Positions 6,595-23,829 of a stretch of DNA of 32,000 nt are shown here, piece after piece. A program made the translations under genes and the position numbers. Where the stretch lies: NCBI RefSeq assembly GCF_000223395.1, contig NC_015931.1, forward strand, positions 1,350,001 through 1,382,000, written 5' to 3'. Numbering within the stretch: the stretch's first letter is position 1; each line of letters begins with the position of its first letter. The notes beneath the pieces were generated by a model that was not told the origin of the DNA, did not search any database, and was given only the letters and a program-made list of their open reading frames with translations. The stretch is from Pyrolobus fumarii 1A. GTDB lineage: Archaea; Thermoproteota; Thermoprotei_A; Sulfolobales; Pyrodictiaceae.

Positions 6595-6686
6595 CACGTT
6601 TTCCAACCGAACATATGTTCGGCTAAAACGACACAAGCACTAAGAGTAGTCGACACACCCTTTACACTCTCCAAAGGGTTTATGCC

Positions 6687-7538
6687 ATGCCGCGTGTAAG
6701 CATAGAGCACGTAATTGATATGGACTACGAGGGCGTAACGAAGGTGCTAACAAGTTTCGTACGCGGCATTGTATCTAAGAGTGGACTGAGAGGCGCGGTT
6801 GTCGGCGTTAGCGGAGGCGTTGACTCGGCAACGACACTGGCTCTTCTAGTTAACGCGCTTGGCTCAAACCGAGTTATTGCGCTAATCATGCCCGATTCAC
6901 GCGTAACTCCCGACGATGATGTCAATGATGCTATAGGCCTCGTAAAGTCGTTTGGGGTAGACTATCGAGTGTACAGGATAGACTCTATAGTGGATAGTTA
7001 TACGGCAGTGACCGGTGGAGGCAGCAAGAAGAGCATTGGCAACTTGCGCGCTCGTATTCGTATGACTCTACTCTACTTTACCGCCAACGAGGAAAACATG
7101 CTAGTAGCCGGTACCGGCGACCGTAGCGAGATACTCATAGGCTACTTCACGAAGTATGGTGATGGAGCCGCAGACTTCATGCCCATAGCGACACTATACA
7201 AGACGCAGGTTAGGAGGCTAGCTGTCCATCTAGGTGTTCCGAGGAAGATTGCTGAGAAGCCTAGCGCGCCTAGACTGTGGGAGGGTCACGTGGCTGAAGA
7301 GGAGCTTGGCGTCAAGTACGAGGATATTGACGTGACACTCTTCTCACTTGTTGATCTAGGCTTGACGCCGAAGAAGGTCGTAGACGTGACCGGGCTTAGT
7401 GATGGTGTGGTCGAGCGTGTAGTCGAGCTTATGAACGCGGCGCGCCACAAACAGCTGGAGCTTCCAAGCCCAAGTCTCGAGAGCATCTATGCATACTGGC
7501 CCGGCTTCGAGAATGCACGTAAAACTCTAGGTGGTTAA
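6687..7538 (+). CDS. nadE: NH3-dependent NAD+ synthetase
   Basis: PP-loop motif GVSGGVDSA plus GTGDRSE and YFTKYGDG. About 283 aa. Confidence 0.9.
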   Translation: MPRVSIEHVIDMDYEGVTKVLTSFVRGIVSKSGLRGAVVGVSGGVDSATTLALLVNALGSNRVIALIMPDSRVTPDDDVNDAIGLVKSFGVDYRVYRIDSIVDSYTAVTGGGSKKSIGNLRARIRMTLLYFTANEENMLVAGTGDRSEILIGYFTKYGDGAADFMPIATLYKTQVRRLAVHLGVPRKIAEKPSAPRLWEGHVAEEELGVKYEDIDVTLFSLVDLGLTPKKVVDVTGLSDGVVERVVELMNAARHKQLELPSPSLESIYAYWPGFENARKTLGG

Positions 7539-10176: not shown

Positions 10177-10351
10177 CTTTTAACCAACCCGGAAAAGAAG
10201 GTTCGCCGATGGGCACTGATAGAGTTTCCACTTGACCCACCCGCAGAGCAACCATAACCACAATCATCGTCTCTAACATCACATGGTGCCACAACTCTTA
10301 TTAAACCTTTGCTGTTTGTTTGTCTTGTAACGGTGGGTGGCGGGGTAGGGG

Positions 10352-10428
10352 AGCGGGGTAGGGTAGCCTGGTAGCCCGCGGGGCTCATAACCCCGAGATC
10401 GGTGGTTCAAATCCACCCCCCGCTACCA
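10352..10428 (+). tRNA. tRNA-Met (CAT), initiator type, CCA encoded
   Basis: The sequence AGCGGGGTAGGGTAGCCTGGTAGCCCGCGGGGCTCATAACCCCGAGATCGGTGGTTCAAATCCACCCCCCGCTACCA folds as a cloverleaf. It has an A1:U72 acceptor end and three consecutive G:C pairs in the anticodon stem (GGG/CCC). Both are initiator hallmarks. The T-loop is GGTTCAAATCC. Confidence 0.93.
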
Positions 10429-10727
10429 ACGCGGGCCCCGCCGCCACATTCTCCTTGTCATCCTCCCTTCACAACACCCATTCCAGATCTAGCCGGACAC
10501 GTCACTCTATCGGGAGACTACCCTAACACATGTTTACAAAAACCCATCATAACGAGAGATGAGAGAGATAAGAGGCACCTACTCATGCTGAAATTGGATC
10601 CTAAACATAAACCGTTACTCGTTTCTACGCTACAGCCTTTACTCTTAGTTGGGATGAGGAGGCCCCTACTAGCGGGGGTTCCCACGCAGACCTGGTGACG
10701 AAGGTCCCATTCTCCGACCGTACATTC

Positions 10728-13161: not shown

Positions 13162-13785
13162 ATGTCTGCCTCTACACAGCAGAGTAGCACTAGGGTAGTG
13201 CGCCGCACCCCCGTTATAGAGCCGCCGGAGCCCTCCTACCGCATTGAGAACATCGTTGCAACCGTCACGCTTGACCAGAATCTCGACCTGTATGCCATCG
13301 AGACCAGCATACCGAATGTAGAGTATAACCCGGAGCAGTTCCCTGGCCTAGTGTTCCGCCTCGAGGAGCCCAAGGTAACGGCACTGATATTCAAGTCTGG
13401 CAAGATGGTTGTCACCGGCGCCAAGAGTACACAGCAGCTGATCGAAGCCGTTAAGAAGATAATAAGGGAGCTCAAGAGGCACGGTATCGTGATAGTGGGT
13501 AGGCCCAAGGTACAGATACAGAACATAGTGGCCTCGGCCAACCTCAACGTATGCGTCGATCTAGAGAAGGCTGCGTTGACCCTCGAGAACAGCATGTATG
13601 AGCCCGAGCAGTTCCCTGGCCTAATCTACCGCATGCAGAACCCGCGCGTCGTGCTACTCATATTCAGCTCCGGCAAGATGGTCATTACGGGCGCCAAGCG
13701 CGAGGAGGAGGTCAAGGAGGCTGTGTACAACATTCGCGACACGCTAGCCAAGATGAGAGCGCTGAGACCCTGCCCATCCGAGTAA
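13162..13785 (+). CDS. tbp: TATA-box binding protein
   Basis: Two TBP repeats are present: [20 protein letters not shown]...[11 protein letters not shown]...[16 protein letters not shown] and [21 protein letters not shown]...[11 protein letters not shown]...[17 protein letters not shown] prefer the ATG at 13162 because the tracked ORF start at 13006 lies inside hisG. Confidence 0.93.
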
Positions 13786-14553
13786 CCCGCCAGCCTCCTC
13801 CGGCGCTAGTATCTCCTCGAGCTCGCCCAGCTCGGGGAACTCTAACACACCTAGACCCTCAGCTATAACGAACGGCTTCATCTTATGCAGGTCCACCTCT
13901 TTTCTCAGTATGGGCGATAGGTACGTCTCCGGCATTGTAGAGACTGTTGTACCCGTCTGGTAGACGCCCGTCGCCGGCAGAACTATGAGTGTCGCGCCGG
14001 TCGGCTCGTGGCGCCCCACGAGGAAGCATGGGGCTTTTGCCACGTATCCTACCTTGTCCTTCAACGATATACTGGGGTGCTCGTGGCCCATGATTATGAT
14101 TCTCGGCTTTACTCCCTCCGGGAGCTGCTTGTGCCCGTGGATGAATACTATACCGTCTATCTCAAGATGCCCCTTTACAACTTCAACGTCATAGTCCTTC
14201 GCCACAACCACTAGGTAACTATCGTGGTTGCCCTTGACGATCTTTACCTCTACACCCTTCTGCTTTAGGTACTCGAATAACTTGGCTACTTCCTCCCTCT
14301 CGAGCCTAGTCAGCCTCTCGAACGTGTGTTTCACGTCGCCGACTATGATTACCCTATCCGGGTCATAGAGGCTGAAGGCCTCCTCTAGCATCTTCAATGC
14401 TCTCTTTAGCTGAACGCGTGGCAGGAAGTAGCCGTGCTTAGCAGCCTCCTCCTCAAACCCCAGGTGTAGATCTGCAAACACCAGCGCCCTCAAACTACGT
14501 ATGTATACTGCGGGGTGCTCCGCTACTGGCTCTATTCCAGGCACCAGCTCCAC
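13744..14553 (-). CDS. calcineurin-like metallophosphoesterase
   Basis: Motifs FADLHLG, VGDVKH, GNHD, HGH and GHEH. GTG start at 14553. The 3' end overlaps the tbp 3' end by 42 nt. Confidence 0.8.
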
Positions 14554-15526
14554 ACTCTACACCGGTATTATCGCGTGCAGACACCCCGTGATAAGGCAAG
14601 AGCGGTGTACCAGACACTCGACCGGTACACCCACCCCCATCGTTCACAACAACAATCACGCGACGACGATTATCGGGGACTTCTGTTCAGCCGACACTAG
14701 CATTAACACACACCACACGAGCACACTACAAGAGCGCAACTTCACACCCTACACGGTACACCACACTACAACACTACGATGATATCAGAGTATAACCAAG
14801 TAATCGTACTATACGCATTGCACACCAACAATCCATCTCGTTACCCGCGTTCATTATCGTAGAGTGGTTGACACGCTCGATCCTATGCTATCATGCACGT
14901 GCAGAGCCTAGTTGGAGACACTCAAACCAATACATGGAGTGTGATCAGTCGAGCTGCATGACGCCACGTATATCGCTAAACACCAAGATGCATTACTCCC
15001 AGTGTATACGCTCATTACCGGGAACCTACCATGCACGAAATGCGTACCAATGCCGCCAGAGACTCCTTCAGCACCTAGAGCTGTTTACACGATTCGCCTC
15101 TAACACCTCTAACGTCCAAACCCACATCTATCACCGCTAAACTCACACAGGTGCAACCAGTGTTAGCGTCCGCTGTACACAACCTGCAAAGCTGGGTGCA
15201 CCAGTCTACCACCCGATACAACTACCGGTACACCGTCTAGTATTAGGGACAGTTCACTATTCTACTAGGCAAGGCGCAAATACCAAATACTTACGCTCAA
15301 CGCGAAAAACAGTCACACTGCACGCATCGCGACACACGCTTTACTCGACTCGCAGAGATCAGCGCATATCCGAGAAGCATCTGCCCATCGGCGTGTCGGA
15401 CTTTACTGCTTATATCCTCCTTTGACCTCGCAAAGATTCTTGTATCAAGGCGCTGGCCACACGCTTAACTGTTGATACGAACATACGAGCTTCTCAAAAT
15501 TCCATGCCCACAAGACGTATGTGAAA

Positions 15527-15828
15527 GTAACACGGGGCCATGCACGCTCCAGCTGCGGGATCCGTAGTGAGCTAGGCCGCACAGCCTCCACACTATGCAC
15601 CTACACCAAACGCGTATTACTATCCGGCGCGTGTTACCACCAGACTCTCTGCCGCTATCCCCGCTGCGTAGAGAGCTAGGTCACGCAACCAGCAAACAAC
15701 CCATTCGACTCCACAACGTATTACTAGCAGTGTGTAATACGGGTCTTTGCTGCTCACCGCTTCTGGTTAGCGTTTGGGCATCCCCATCTGACCCCCCAGC
15801 GCTATACCCTGCCCCGCCAGCGTATTAC
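15527..15828. repeat. phased CGTRTTAC motif array
   Basis: CGTATTAC occurs at 15613, 15717 and 15821 on the + strand, exactly 104 bp apart. A partner copy lies 17 nt downstream of each of the first two: CGTGTTAC at 15630 (direct) and GTAATACG at 15734 (inverted). A further GTAACACG lies at 15527. Confidence 0.7.
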
Positions 15829-15962
15829 TTTGCCTTGCGCTACTCCCGATGCCTCACGGATATTCCGCCATATCCTGTTACCCCGCCGCCTTGGGCCGCG
15901 AACCATCACCCAAATCACACCATCGCTCTACATCGGTATGGTTGTGGCGGGATGTAGCCCCA

Positions 15963-15993
15963 CGGTGAAGTTAACTGGCGGTTAACTTCACCG
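15963..15993. repeat. perfect 13-bp inverted repeat with a 5-nt spacer
   Basis: CGGTGAAGTTAAC tggcg GTTAACTTCACCG. It sits where the strand composition switches from C-rich to G-rich. Confidence 0.8.
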
Positions 15994-16027
15994 CCGGTAG
16001 ATTTAACCACAGTTTCTTGTGGAGGCA

Positions 16028-16215
16028 TGGAGGGGTCTTGGAGGAGCTAGCGTTGCAAATGGTTATGGCGGGTTGCTGTGGCCAGTTGCCGTACCCGCCG
16101 AACTGTTGCCTTCTCACCATTGCCCCTGGCTCCCAAACAGGTCGAGGGTTCCTGTGATGCTGTTCGCAGGGTTTGACCTTAAGTGCACTAGTGTATTAAC
16201 CGGTGCACCGTCCAA
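16028..16215 (+). ncRNA. candidate small structured RNA (class unknown)
   Basis: A TATA-like ATTTAACC at 16001-16008 lies about 25 nt upstream. The segment is G-rich and has several complementary blocks: GGCGGGT 16068/ACCCGCC 16093, AGGTC/GACCT, a CTG-TTCG-CAG hairpin, and paired GTGCAC sites. No known RNA family motif was recognised. Confidence 0.2.
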
Positions 16216-16227
16216 TCCACTCGTGCA

Positions 16228-16240
16228 GAAAATAAATATT
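16228..16240 (-). terminator. oligo-T tract downstream of eL38
   Basis: The minus strand reads AATATTTATTTTC immediately after the eL38 stop. This fits the archaeal oligo-T terminator type. Confidence 0.35.
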
Positions 16241-16246
16241 GGAGTG

Positions 16247-16537
16247 TTATGATAGTTGTTGTTCTACGTCCTTGTCTAGTACGACTAGGTTGCCTCCGCA
16301 CACTTCGCCCTTTGCAACCATGTCTTTCAACTGCTTCGCGAACTCGAGTCCTTTCTCGTAGTCCTCGAACTTCAACGTGTATAGGTAGCGACGTGTTCTA
16401 GCCTTGACCTTTAGGATGGGCCTTTTCTCAACACCATTCTCCGTTTTGACATACACATAGCTCTTCTTTACGCGGCACTCACTCGCCCTCTTAGCCGCCT
16501 CGAGGAACTCTTCTACAGTTTTTACCTCCTTGGGCAT
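16247..16537 (-). CDS. rpl38e: ribosomal protein eL38
   Basis: MPKEVKTVEEFLEAAKR...KVKARTRRYLYTLKFEDYEKGLEFAKQL parallels eukaryotic L38 (MPRKIEEIKDFL...[28 protein letters not shown]). It is longer than eukaryotic L38, with an internal insertion and a C-terminal extension. Confidence 0.8.
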   Translation of the reverse strand: MPKEVKTVEEFLEAAKRASECRVKKSYVYVKTENGVEKRPILKVKARTRRYLYTLKFEDYEKGLEFAKQLKDMVAKGEVCGGNLVVLDKDVEQQLS

Positions 16538-18277: not shown

Positions 18278-18646
18278 GTGACGGGTGTACCCGTCTTGCC
18301 AGCGAGAGGCGAGGCTACAGTTCTCTCGTCGGCACTGCTTCTTGGCATCACTTTGGTTCTTGGCACTGTGCTAGCCATTTACGCTGCAACTGTAGCTACG
18401 GGAACCAGCACCGATACCAAGCCGTGCACGATAAGTACGTTGAAAGTTGCTGATGGCGTGCTCGTGTACAACTCGTGCCCCTATGCGGTCAATATCACGT
18501 TTCTGCCGCCAGGCGCCTATACAGTGTTGACAACGTCTGGCAGTGTAAACGTGTCAATGGTTACCCTCGAACCTGGAGAGGCTATTCTGGTAAAAGGCGG
18601 TGTAAAGGCTGTTGAGTCTGAGGGTATCATCATCGAGGTGAGCTAA
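18278..18646 (+). CDS. small secreted/membrane protein with an archaeal class-III (type IV pilin-like) signal peptide
   Basis: The N-terminus ...PARG/EATVLSSALLLGITLVLGTVLAIYAA has a short basic head, an RG motif and then a ~22-aa hydrophobic helix. The rest is Thr/Val-rich and beta-like. Start is GTG 18278 or TTG 18296. Confidence 0.55.
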   Translation: MTGVPVLPARGEATVLSSALLLGITLVLGTVLAIYAATVATGTSTDTKPCTISTLKVADGVLVYNSCPYAVNITFLPPGAYTVLTTSGSVNVSMVTLEPGEAILVKGGVKAVESEGIIIEVS

Positions 18647-18685: not shown

Positions 18686-20287
18686 ATGTATACCCACGGC
18701 ACGGTGCACGATATGAAATATCGAAGAACACTTGCCAGCATCTATGCTTTTGTATCCCTGACGTTGTACCTCTACGTGTATCCATTGGTTAGCGATGAGC
18801 TAACATCGCTTGCTATAGCAGCCGCTGTGGGCTGGGCCGCAGCCTATACAGCTTATACGGTGCCACGATATAGTGGTATCATTTTCAGTCTAGCCGCCAT
18901 AGCAGCGATGCTTTCGCTGGCATCGGCTTCCCCCGCCCATTGGCTTTACATCGCACTTTCAGATTTCATTGTACTATTGTCTTATGTGATGTTAACGCTA
19001 GCGTTGCTTGCCGCAGGCGTAAGCATAAGGAGATATATTGGCATTATAGCCGCGAGTACCGGGCTACTAGCTGGTGCTACACTACACGCTCCCTACGGTC
19101 ATTTGGCTGCCATTGGTTTACTGGCCATGTATGCCGCGCTGAGCGGCAGCGTATCAAGGACGCTCATAGCGCTCCTGTTTGAGGAATATACTAGGTTCTC
19201 ATTATCAATGTGCATTGCGAGCATGGGCATTGTTAAGTGTTTTGACGGGTTCACAGAGGTGCCTACAAGACCGATAAAGCCGCTGGTAGATGCGCTACTA
19301 GAGCCCATAGGCAAGATGAGTCCAGAAGTAATTCAGGTGTTGTATAAGCCTTTGTCGTTCTTTGTCCTCACGTTCGCAGGGGCTATGCTAGTCTATGGTG
19401 TCACAGCCGCCGTAGCATCTAGTGTTGAGAGGCGTCTGGCTAGGTGGACCCCCGAGGCCGCTGCTATAACAAAGCATAGCATCATTCTGTCATCAGCACT
19501 CTCATTACTGTCTTACTTCACGGCACTAAACTTATTCGTAACATCATCCTGGCTACTCTCTTGCAACTTTAGAACACCATTTATACCAACATTCATAATA
19601 GCTGCATCAATAGCAACTACATCTATACTTGTGAAGCTACTTCACTATATATCGTCTATACGCTCTCTAAGTGAGGAAAAGAACAGCCTCATAGAGTCTA
19701 TAGATGCACTACGCCAGGATGTTATTAGGCTCTTGAACGAGTCACGCACCTCGAGGGTCACTCCGAGAAATACGAGTGAGAAACTTAAGGCTCTACTTGA
19801 GAAGCTAGATAACCTCAAGGCTAGGGTTGTAAAAGCAGGTCTACTGGAGCTGCCCAACTTAGAGAGGCTGCTCACCGAGTTTGAAGCCGAGTATCGCGAT
19901 ATCGGCAACAGCATTGTAGCTAGTCTTGAGCACACACTATCTGCTATACATGATTCTTGCAGGATGTTATCACGGTGGGCGAGTGAACACAGCCTACCTA
20001 AGGATTGCCACGAGGCACCACTTGATATACGAGGCCGAGATGCACACAGAGCAATTATCGAGGTTGAACGTGCAGCCCAGAAGCTCCTAGAATACATCGA
20101 GTTACTCCTGGACGAGATAGAGGTTGAAGCCGAAGAGGCAAAGATAGAGGCGAAGGAGCTGCTAGAGCTTAGAAAGCTAGTAGAGAGTATAGACTTTAGC
20201 GACCCCGAGACCTTGAGAAACCAAACAAGAGAGTTCATATTGAAGGCGTCTAGCATACTCGGAAGGGTGTACACGAGACAAGCCTAA
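18686..20287 (+). CDS. polytopic membrane protein with a ~200-aa C-terminal coiled-coil domain (unknown function)
   Basis: The N-terminal ~320 aa consists of successive hydrophobic segments, roughly 9-10 predicted TM helices by eye. The C-terminal part is heptad-like and E/K/L/R-rich (EKNSLIESIDALRQDVIRLL..., EVEAEEAKIEAKELLELRKLVE). No family recognised. Confidence 0.65.
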   Translation: MYTHGTVHDMKYRRTLASIYAFVSLTLYLYVYPLVSDELTSLAIAAAVGWAAAYTAYTVPRYSGIIFSLAAIAAMLSLASASPAHWLYIALSDFIVLLSYVMLTLALLAAGVSIRRYIGIIAASTGLLAGATLHAPYGHLAAIGLLAMYAALSGSVSRTLIALLFEEYTRFSLSMCIASMGIVKCFDGFTEVPTRPIKPLVDALLEPIGKMSPEVIQVLYKPLSFFVLTFAGAMLVYGVTAAVASSVERRLARWTPEAAAITKHSIILSSALSLLSYFTALNLFVTSSWLLSCNFRTPFIPTFIIAASIATTSILVKLLHYISSIRSLSEEKNSLIESIDALRQDVIRLLNESRTSRVTPRNTSEKLKALLEKLDNLKARVVKAGLLELPNLERLLTEFEAEYRDIGNSIVASLEHTLSAIHDSCRMLSRWASEHSLPKDCHEAPLDIRGRDAHRAIIEVERAAQKLLEYIELLLDEIEVEAEEAKIEAKELLELRKLVESIDFSDPETLRNQTREFILKASSILGRVYTRQA

Positions 20288-22455: not shown

Positions 22456-23829
22456 TTGACAGTACCAACACTTACTAGCTCATGCCACATCCCAGTTAGA
22501 CTGGTATCAACTTCTTCGATCCTATTAGCGACGCTAACATTAACCATTATCATCACAACTTCGCTATCCACAGTTGTGGGTCACGCCGCTACTCACAGTA
22601 TTGTCCTTGAAGTCACGCCGCGCATCGTGTCAACAGACGGCACTCTGCGTATTAAGCTGGTTCAGACGTCACCCGAGTATGAGACTGTCGCAGTTAGATT
22701 AGAGGGGCCGAGCAGCACAGGCTATATGACGTTGAGTGCCGGCTCTATAGTGGCCATAGATTTGAGCACGTACAGGTTACCTCCAGGACTCTATTATGTC
22801 ACCGCATATGATACTCCTGGCGGCAAACGCCTCACATCTGTACCCGTGCTACTCGTCAACGTCAAACTAACATTTACACCGCCAAGACCAAGCATAGGCC
22901 AAGAGTTCCTTGCAACACCATTGATAGAGCCGCCCGGCTACGACTATCGCATCACTATAAAGGTTGACAACAAGATTATTGGAGAGACAGAGCCAGGCAC
23001 TGGCGTGAAACTCAGGTTAGACACTAGAGGACCACATACAATATGCATCGACATCTCAGCAAACATACAAGGCCAGATCTACAACGAGGCTAACGTGACA
23101 TGTACTCAATTAGTTTTGAACGTCCCTCCGACAATAGGCGCCCAGACAATGCTAGAAGGCAATTACATAACCTTATTGCTGGACGTGCGCGACCCAGATG
23201 GCGTACTCATCTCGGCATCCTACAATTGTACAATTGATGGACTTACTTGGAGCGGATACCTACCAGGCGGCATTTCACGCGTAAAACTACTGACCATAGA
23301 TGACGCATATACCATTCTAAACGAGACGAGCGGCCTCGCACTACTCAAGTGCACTATATCCGCAGTTGACGACTCAGGAGCCAGGGCTACAAAGCTCTTG
23401 GTGGAGCGTCTCGCAGACATACTTGCAGCAACCACTATAGAGGAATCGAATAGACAAACAGGGACACCTAAGAGAACGGCACAAAAAGAGACTGCAACCA
23501 CAACACAAGCGTCACATGGAGGGTCACCACCCTTACCCTCCGAGATTCTCATACCACTAGCTGCCATCATACCCCTAGTAGGCGGCTTAGCCGCTCTGTT
23601 CATACTGCGCAAGAAGAAGATGGGTATGAAGCAAAAGACTGCACCACCAAAACCTGCGAGAGAGCGTACCGCGGTGGAGCAAAGCAGAGAGGAGCTAGCA
23701 AACGTGATAGCTAGACTTGATAAGCTCGAGAGACAAATGGAAGAGCTTATAGGGATAGTTGGCGAGCTTCGTGGCGAAGTAGACGAGCTAAGATCTCATG
23801 TGAAAAAGCTCGAAGAGCGTAGGAGATAA
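22456..23829 (+). CDS. type-I membrane-anchored surface protein with a cytoplasmic coiled-coil tail (unknown function)
   Basis: It has an N-terminal hydrophobic signal-like segment (SSILLATLTLTIIITTSLS). About 300 aa of beta-rich ectodomain follows, then a Thr-rich linker (TGTPKRTAQKETATTTQASHGG). The TM anchor is ILIPLAAIIPLVGGLAALFIL followed by RKKK. The tail is 70 aa with heptad character (LANVIARLDKLERQMEELIGIVGELRGEVDELRSHVKKLEERRR). TTG start. Confidence 0.65.
   Translation: MTVPTLTSSCHIPVRLVSTSSILLATLTLTIIITTSLSTVVGHAATHSIVLEVTPRIVSTDGTLRIKLVQTSPEYETVAVRLEGPSSTGYMTLSAGSIVAIDLSTYRLPPGLYYVTAYDTPGGKRLTSVPVLLVNVKLTFTPPRPSIGQEFLATPLIEPPGYDYRITIKVDNKIIGETEPGTGVKLRLDTRGPHTICIDISANIQGQIYNEANVTCTQLVLNVPPTIGAQTMLEGNYITLLLDVRDPDGVLISASYNCTIDGLTWSGYLPGGISRVKLLTIDDAYTILNETSGLALLKCTISAVDDSGARATKLLVERLADILAATTIEESNRQTGTPKRTAQKETATTTQASHGGSPPLPSEILIPLAAIIPLVGGLAALFILRKKKMGMKQKTAPPKPARERTAVEQSREELANVIARLDKLERQMEELIGIVGELRGEVDELRSHVKKLEERRR

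Follow-up and report, generated by a model that had tools for sequence, protein, structure and literature searches.

A long gene-free gap in a compact neighbourhood

The stretch of DNA analysed here, hereafter the window, comprises 32,000 nucleotides of the archaeon Pyrolobus fumarii 1A (contig NC_015931.1, positions 1,350,001 to 1,382,000; coordinates below are those of the window). It holds a 1702-bp gap without credible genes, which we call the island, between the 5' end of a PdeM/SbcD-like metallophosphoesterase gene (13744-14544, minus strand) and the 3' end of rpl38e (16247-16537, minus strand). All other spacers in the window measure at most 614 bp, and the genome is 87.7% coding (PMC3156397). 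An initial annotation had singled out this block as lacking any credible coding sequence, and had offered as explanations a replication origin or other protein-loading platform, long divergent non-coding transcripts, or a decayed element or pseudogene block. We find that the island is conserved as non-coding DNA in four Pyrolobus-like species, in which a box resembling archaeal origin recognition boxes (ORBs) lies at a fixed distance from a palindrome with an invariant centre. We tentatively read it as a protein-binding platform, possibly a replication origin or an origin-derived initiator-binding locus of atypical build.

The absence of genes was borne out, with no protein-family signal anywhere in the 1702 bp. 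On the minus strand no open reading frame (ORF) exceeds 54 aa, in line with the earlier statement that none reaches 60 aa. The plus-strand ORFs (93, 90, 120 and 77 aa), which had been regarded as artefacts of composition, have no Pfam match even at E<=1 in a search that took in all island ORFs of at least 48 aa. Rfam, both at the gathering threshold and at E<=10, left the island empty save for a chance microRNA match on the palindrome described below, and ARAGORN returned no tRNA in it. Tandem Repeats Finder gave only a weak 13-nt repeat in two copies, located in the most skewed stretch of the island, and canonical G-quadruplex motifs are not conserved. The features discussed below are collected in Table 1.

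Table 1. Sequence features of the island and their positions in the window.
Feature	Position	Strand	Remarks
Whole ORF-free gap	14545..16246	none	Borders: phosphoesterase start at 14544 (-), rpl38e stop codon at 16247-16249 (-)
P. fumarii-specific extension	14545..15176	none	Most A+C-rich part; without counterpart in the 822-893-bp gaps of relatives
TATA-like box CGATAATA	14567..14574	-	GTG start codon (14544) follows after about 26 nt
Near-palindromic GGTRYACC pair GGTGTACC, then ACCGGTACACC	14604..14631	none	Second copy of the 15195-15235 block
Phosphoesterase-side boundary boxes GGTGCACC ... ACCGGTACACC	15195..15235	none	Called ancestral
Two degenerate 31-nt direct repeats	15563..15697	+	At a distance of 104 bp; same register as the GTATTAC array
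GTATTAC array	15614(+), 15718(+), 15734(-), 15822(+)		Plus-strand copies 104 bp apart
Only aligning block	15913..16073	none	About 70-75% identity across four Pyrolobus-like species
Perfect 13-bp palindrome with 5-nt spacer	15963..15993	none	Arms CGGTGAAGTTAAC (15963-15975) and GTTAACTTCACCG (15981-15993)
Third GTTAA-type half-site GGTTAAATC	16001..16009	-	GGTTAA invariant in four species; same distance in L094
ORB-like box CTCCACAAGAAACTGTGG	16007..16024	-	Core TCCA-NNN-GAAAC starts 35 bp before the palindrome in 4/4 species
G+T-rich segment (plus strand) between core and rpl38e	16025..16246	+	Length and bias kept in relatives, sequence not
Boundary box GGTGCACC, rpl38e end	16202..16209	none	In relatives tandem AGTACACC, inverted with respect to the phosphoesterase end
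T-rich tract ATATTTATTTTCT	16227..16239	-	8-20 nt after the rpl38e stop codon; absent in relatives

Conservation of the gap in close relatives

Searches with TBP and rpl38e yielded three further Pyrolobus-like species (loci L005/L087/L088, L085/L086 and L089/L090). Their flanking proteins share about 80-93% identity with the P. fumarii ones. In all three, a gene-free gap of 822-893 bp directly follows rpl38e, so that the synteny comparison proposed in the initial annotation ends with the gap kept free of genes and its motifs kept as well. Only about 160 bp can be aligned among the four species. On the minus strand, the invariant centre of this block reads CTCCA-YNN-GAAAC-NNN-GGTTAA ... AAGTTAAC-CGCCA-GTTAAYTT-CACC.

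Since the block of boxes at the phosphoesterase end is present in two copies in P. fumarii (15195-15235 and 14604-14631), the conserved module is the region from about 15177 to 16246 (about 1.07 kb), and 14545-15176 (about 630 bp) is a lineage-specific extension. Apart from the second GGTRYACC block, we found no coding, RNA or repeat signal in this extension, which appears to be unconstrained and not to belong to the module. One relative carries a three-gene ABC-transporter operon between the conserved gap and the phosphoesterase gene (L085, 7114-9779). As the operon is inserted where P. fumarii has its additional 630 bp, this edge of the gap tolerates insertions.

These two facts, an orphan stretch specific to one lineage and a boundary that accepted an operon, are what one would expect if the island were a decayed pseudogene block or the remnant of an integrated element. 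We consider such an origin of the island very improbable. The initial annotation had looked to intact genes in relatives, with frames still traceable here, as the sign of decay; there is no gene at this position in the relatives and no frame can be traced. Because the relatives are gene-free, pseudogene and decayed-element ideas fail for the conserved 1.07 kb. Moreover, tblastn of the L085 operon against the island leaves no trace, no island ORF has a Pfam signal, blastn against phages and plasmids and an exact 25-mer scan of viral contigs give no match, and neither an integrase nor tRNA or direct-repeat borders are found. Decay could apply only to the P. fumarii-specific 14545-15176.

An ORB-like box at a fixed distance from a partly invariant palindrome

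The minus-strand box at the rpl38e side of the core reads TCCACAAGAAAC-TGT-GG. Archaeal ORBs, of which Orc1/Cdc6-type origins have at least one, share the core TCCA-NNN-GAAAC with a GG after it: the published ORB of Sulfodiicoccus, TCCAGTGGAAACAGAGGGGT, fits it (PMC6647314), and so do Pyrococcus ORB1/2 (PMC1904270). Across the four species the core varies only at NNN, with the exception of a C-to-A change at its last base in L005, and in all four it lies exactly 35 bp from AAGTTAAC-CGCCA-GTTAACTT. In an unbiased local alignment, the 22-mer TCTCCACAGGAAACGGAGGGGT, which figures as a test duplex in one study (PMC5376975), has its best match at the ORB-like site in 4/4 gaps, with a score reached by at most 1 of 200 shuffles in 3 of them. 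The Pyrococcus ORB, aligned to the island as a whole oligonucleotide, gave no significant match.

The perfect 13-bp inverted repeat announced at 15963-15993 is where it was said to be. What is invariant across species is smaller, namely the inner 8 bp of each arm and the spacer (AAGTTAAC-CGCCA-GTTAAYTT on the minus strand): in L085 and L089 the 13-bp arms are cut to 8 bp and the spacer is unchanged. Consensus folding of both strands shows neither covariation nor compensatory changes at the palindrome. An invariant spacer, lost outer arms and the lack of covariation argue for DNA-protein sites rather than an RNA hairpin. We also considered, and rejected, the palindrome as a hairpin (intrinsic-type) terminator of rpl38e, as it lies 254 nt from the stop codon, has lost its outer pairs in two species and is followed by no T-run. 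Our literature search did not find the palindrome sequence.

The same data bear on whether the island encodes one or more large structured non-coding RNAs (ncRNAs) not yet in Rfam, an idea to which we give only the faintest of chances. Several points are in its favour: a long region without ORFs has kept its place, the gaps of relatives have a slightly higher GC content than their own loci, and the palindrome region folds better than shuffled sequences (z down to -3.9). However, beyond the palindrome the sliding-window folding z-scores stay within +/-1.8 on both strands, and at the palindrome itself the outer pairs are broken in two species around an invariant loop, without compensatory support. 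Also, no Rfam family matches at E<=10 apart from the chance microRNA, and there is no sequence conservation outside the 160 bp.

Motif arrays and boundary boxes

Two families of short motifs are specific to the gap and kept across species. Four of the six GTATTAC copies of the window fall within 215 bp of the island (15614-15828), and in relatives exact copies are found almost only within the gap, 150-370 bp from the palindrome and on the same side of it. GGTRYACC, the full form of which is approximately CCGGTRYACCGG, occurs 11 times in the window against 2.07 expected, with 6 of the 11 inside the island. The relatives have two CCGGTRYACCGG-like boxes at the phosphoesterase end and tandem inverted AGTACACC boxes at the rpl38e end, so that boxes of this type stand in inverted orientation at both ends of the gap in 4/4 species.

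Occurrence of the core beyond Pyrolobus

Among 80 TBP-linked loci from other Thermoproteota we found none with the core, nor do these lineages have a long gap ahead of the phosphoesterase gene. The 21-mer AAGTTAAC-CGCCA-GTTAAYTT is present in two other archaeal lineages, the L094 group (L094/L097/L102) and L104. The former is a Thermoproteota lineage of 44% GC, in which GGTTAAC lies 21 nt upstream of the element and CTTTACCG downstream. Here a gene-free gap of 1.16 kb and 34.5% GC separates a DUF973 gene from an MscS gene, the latter adjoined by RuBisCO, and the element lies at the edge of this gap. The MscS homologues that we used to widen this lineage showed no synteny. In L104, where at least 1.1 kb is free of ORFs, several TTAAC half-sites precede the element and three copies of GTATTAC follow it, a number that 2 of 200 shuffles reached. 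When metagenome contigs were scanned for exact matches to the inner 18-mer, 13 were returned, about as many as expected by chance; the L094 group and L104 nevertheless have more in common with the island than this pattern.

The 34.5%-GC gap of L094 contains a GC-rich stretch (690-830) that, by eye, could fold; it has no Rfam match at the gathering threshold. The full 21-mer AAGTTAACCGCCAGTTAACTT is also found in three metagenome contigs of about 40% GC with unrelated flanks (L093, L098 and L103), where it is probably an independent operator-like palindrome.

Strand asymmetry of the island

The island is strongly asymmetric between strands, and its A+C excess is the most extreme of the window, peaking in 14545-15176. 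From 14554 to 15934 the GC skew is -0.26, the AT skew +0.12 and the keto skew -0.19, approximately the minimum among all 1381-bp windows of the 32 kb, and from 15935 to 16246 the signs are opposite (GC skew +0.14, AT skew -0.15). The cumulative minima within the island lie at 15934 (G-C) and 15932 (keto), which places the reversal where the initial annotation had put it, at about 15935. The two line counts that it gave were exact (A23 C23 G7 T7 at 14701-14760; G28 C7 at 16021-16080). Its more general statement that C exceeds G by 1.4- to 3.3-fold in the 60-nt lines needs correction: of 21 lines, line 15721-15780 has more G than C, and in the other 20 C/G ranges from 1.15 to 3.29.

This polarity is kept in all four species although the flanks of the core cannot be aligned: the rpl38e-sense strand is C+A-rich beside rpl38e and G+T-rich toward the phosphoesterase gene. 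The G+T-rich and extremely A-poor flank next to rpl38e is conserved in length and composition and not in sequence, with about 195-240 nt in relatives and A down to 7% on the G-rich strand (7-14% across relatives). Both an origin and a pair of divergent transcripts would be expected to show such a change from negative to positive skew, on either strand read 5' to 3'. C and A are scarce on the outward-reading strand, as expected from the deamination of exposed single strands.

Across the whole window, the GC skew at four-fold degenerate sites is -0.24 and -0.20 in plus-strand genes and about 0 to +0.06 in minus-strand genes. By this measure, the entire 32 kb behaves as though it lay on one replichore.

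Weighing a possible atypical origin

By elimination, and because of the ORB-like box, we rank an origin-like platform first among the explanations of the island. The earlier proposal of a replication origin or protein-loading platform is thereby the best supported of those made, owing to the conserved box, the palindrome and the two motif arrays in four species. It does not extend to a canonical origin: the pattern ORB(-)/DNA-unwinding element/ORB(+) is not found, and for this reason we do not file the island as one. In such a platform, the functional heart would be the block 15913-16073, with its single ORB 35 bp from a GTTAAC-type palindrome and a third GTTAA half-site between them. An Orc1/Cdc6 paralogue would bind the ORB and a dimeric factor the palindrome, and the flanking arrays might recruit or phase additional proteins. 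Strand opening, or another strand-asymmetric process, would run outward from this core. On each side, the outward 5'-to-3' strand would then be left G+T-rich through C-to-T (and A-to-G) deamination at about 100 degrees C or more.

Crenarchaeal origins of the Orc1/Cdc6 type (Aeropyrum pernix oriC1, Sulfolobus oriC1, Hyperthermus butylicus oriC) share with the island a long intergenic region, an ORB with the TCCA-NNN-GAAAC core and GG after it, and the local skew polarity. Those of A. pernix and H. butylicus, the closest relatives studied, resemble it further in having no adjacent initiator gene (PMC5333045; bioRxiv 10.64898/2026.08.15.744077). The island differs from this type in having one ORB with no inverted partner, no AT-rich unwinding element and no ucm, in the GGTTAA that replaces the G-string of full ORBs, and in a regional neutral-site skew that does not switch. 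Origins of the WhiP type (Sulfolobus oriC3 and A. pernix oriC2, arranged as IR(+)/ucm/IR(-)) are similar in that inverted short repeats bound a gene-free region of several hundred bp around a distinct central element, with no dependence on a classical ORB pair. Here the island differs in its GGTRYACC-type boundary repeats, unlike the published TACTACTACTAC, in a centre made of an ORB and a GTTAAC palindrome rather than ucm, and in the lack of a recognised whiP-like gene nearby. A parallel in concept is the mORB/C3 arrangement of S. solfataricus oriC2, bound by Orc1-1 and Orc1-3, in which an ORB-type site abuts the site of a different protein. Sequence similarity of mORB/C3 to the island is nonetheless at chance level, and the palindromic partner site of the island hints at binding by a dimer and not by another Orc1 monomer.

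Several observations weigh against an origin. There is no AT-rich unwinding element in the island, whose richest 50-mer reaches 66% AT at 14770, in the non-conserved part; the AT fraction of the core is at most 0.56, and the relatives' gaps have 58-63% GC, slightly above their own loci. At up to 1 mismatch each gap has a single ORB, with no second, inverted one at a conserved position, and candidates with 2 mismatches are at positions that are not conserved. The 22-mer that singles out the box is only presumably A. pernix ORB4. The ucm sequence TTATACAAAC has no match at up to 1 mismatch in any gap; its sole 2-mismatch match, in P. fumarii, is not conserved, and the 30-mer aligns at chance level. 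The WhiP-type repeat is not present in the gaps, and aligned as a whole oligonucleotide it gives nothing significant. No orc1/cdc6 gene lies within +/-15 kb, and no ORF of the window has a Cdc6/Orc domain; nor is there a recognisable whiP gene within the same distance, judged from neighbour proteins that have no family match and without a WhiP sequence or model as query. In the L094 and L104 lineages, no ORB accompanies the palindrome.

The skew adds further difficulties. Window-wide, the cumulative skew runs with the orientation of the genes and has no turning point at the island. Both sides show an excess of C on the plus strand, about 0.13 at the four-fold degenerate sites of the genes that flank the island, which means that the regional neutral skew has no switch here. 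Finally, the reversal was said to coincide with the palindrome: in P. fumarii the two are indeed only 29 nt apart, but relatives have 100-300 bp between them.

The skew fits a local, transcription-linked process better than a replichore-wide one, as it is limited to the gap and absent from the neutral sites of the neighbours. The island might then be a divergent non-coding transcription unit or regulatory hub with the core as bidirectional promoter-operator, which we regard as rather unlikely. In such a unit, TTAAAT/ATTTAA half-sites would serve as TATA boxes, a dimeric repressor would have its operator in the palindrome, and a regulator of the Orc1-2 type would bind the ORB-like box, Orc1-2 being a transcription regulator in Sulfolobales (PMC9738581). 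One unstructured transcript would run leftward to the phosphoesterase gene and another rightward, antisense to the 3' end of rpl38e, and exposure of the non-template strand would enrich G+T locally in each RNA-sense strand.

Transcripts that diverge from the core would give the polarity observed, so that the long divergent transcripts of the initial annotation predict the same skew as an origin; as structured RNAs they are disfavoured by the lack of Rfam matches and covariation and by ordinary folding z-scores. Also in keeping with a transcriptional role, the adjacent gene matches TIGR00024, a putative archaeal family of SbcD-related phosphoesterases, above the cut-off, and resembles PdeM, a ligase-associated DNA-damage-response endonuclease, below it. 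A looser scan of viral contigs returned unrelated phage palindromes of the GTTAAC type with other spacers, some of them just upstream of sequences like ribosome-binding sites and hence operator-like in appearance, although their number is at chance level. The operators of dimeric helix-turn-helix or ribbon-helix-helix proteins (phage GTTAAC-N5-GTTAAC, the aCcr1-box of Sulfolobales) likewise have 8-bp inverted half-sites, a 5-nt spacer and extra half-sites nearby, and the short GTA(A/T)TAC-like boxes of the island are reminiscent of the aCcr1-box. The island differs from them in a spacer that is invariant across archaeal lineages and in a gene-free region of at least 0.8 kb instead of a promoter 30-60 bp from a gene, and aCcr1 is described only for Sulfolobales.

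Other observations speak against transcription as the explanation. No promoter is verified, and the GAAAC that resembles a B recognition element does not adjoin the TATA-like element but stands 5 nt away. A separate TATA-like box, 26 nt ahead of the start codon, is probably the promoter of the phosphoesterase gene, whose mRNA would be leaderless. The left part of the island is therefore unlikely to be its leader, and a leader of 0.6-1.4 kb is not needed. The coding strands in the window have more C than G at four-fold sites, and not the reverse, so that transcription-linked deamination is not visible elsewhere in the window. No RNA structure, covariation or Rfam family accompanies the putative transcripts, and the motif arrays at both ends would be left unexplained.

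Alternatively, most of the island could be unconstrained spacer around a small operator, with the 160-bp core and a few boxes acting as ordinary sites for transcription factors or nucleoid proteins. The A+C excess would then reflect the regional strand mutation bias, undamped by coding, plus a cryptic expansion of low-complexity CA/ACC-rich sequence. This we hold to be unlikely. The bias of the left part shares its sign with the flanking neutral sites, which already have more C than G on the plus strand (about -0.13) and slightly more A than T on both sides. Where the skew is strongest there is the weak 13-nt tandem repeat, sequences on either side of the core cannot be aligned between species, and the same boundary received about 630 bp in P. 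fumarii and the ABC-transporter operon in a relative. Also, in the strain pair L089/L090 (6295-7116; 99.4% identical), 10 of 32 differences fall inside the gap, about twice the rate of the flanking genes; all 10 are distal to the core (6628-6957) and partly clustered, with none in the first 333 nt. Nevertheless, it is hard to see why a genome so densely coding should keep at least 0.8 kb free of genes in four species. The skew next to rpl38e is opposite to the regional bias and stronger in relatives, in a segment whose length is conserved and whose sequence is not. Likewise, relatives have GTATTAC and GGTRYACC boxes in corresponding places, well away from the core.

Returning to the origin-like platform that we prefer, we considered a bolder version, quite improbable in our estimation, in which the ORB and the AAGTTAAC-CGCCA-GTTAACTT core with its GTATTAC array define an undescribed class of origins or initiator-loading sites in Thermoproteota. 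Such sites would lack an AT-rich element and have a single-stranded or R-loop-prone flank instead. The palindrome core occurs in long gene-free gaps of at least three lineages. If true, DNA could be opened at 100 degrees C or more through a flank that is chronically single-stranded or prone to R-loops.

P. fumarii grows at up to 113 degrees C. If the island is an origin, it would pair an initiator box with a new palindrome found across lineages and have no AT-rich unwinding element, which would matter for understanding DNA opening in such heat and the diversification of multiple archaeal origins. No more than about a dozen archaea have experimentally mapped replication origins (PMC4010727), and our literature search turned up no description of one for P. 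fumarii. Should the island prove to be something else, it still offers a compact set of conserved DNA motifs with which binding proteins could be fished out, and a clear example of strand-asymmetric composition kept without sequence conservation.

Promoter- and terminator-like elements and neighbouring genes

The initial annotation had listed three ATTATCG copies in the island. They are present (at 14567, 14669 and 14853), but their enrichment is only marginal, with 7 copies window-wide against 2.65 expected, a number reached in 3 of 100 shuffles. Reading their complement, CGATAAT, as TATA-like is plausible for the copy at 14567-14573, just upstream of the phosphoesterase gene, and not for the others. 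At the other end of the island, the T-rich tract ATATTTATTTTCT is probably the terminator of rpl38e in P. fumarii.

The neighbourhood is one of archaeal housekeeping genes, with his genes and those for TBP, the phosphoesterase, rpl38e, a beta-CASP nuclease and eIF2-gamma. The rpl38e product is 100% identical to the L38e protein of P. fumarii 1A, contigs identical to this DNA are present in public read assemblies, and the initial annotation was right to point to Pyrodictiaceae. The second-largest true spacer of the window (10177-10727) contains a tRNA-Met gene (10352-10428). The genes for TBP on the plus strand and the phosphoesterase on the minus strand are convergent, with an overlap of 42 bp (13744-13785); the two are commonly adjacent across Thermoproteota, with variable orientation. 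A pair of genes at 18278-18646 (122 aa) and 18686-20287 (533 aa), without match in Pfam, NCBIfam or PDB sequences, adjoins the beta-CASP nuclease gene and is kept in all Pyrolobus-like relatives. A 457-aa ORF at 22456-23829, also without a family match, has a counterpart of similar size in L085 and L087 (448-459 aa).

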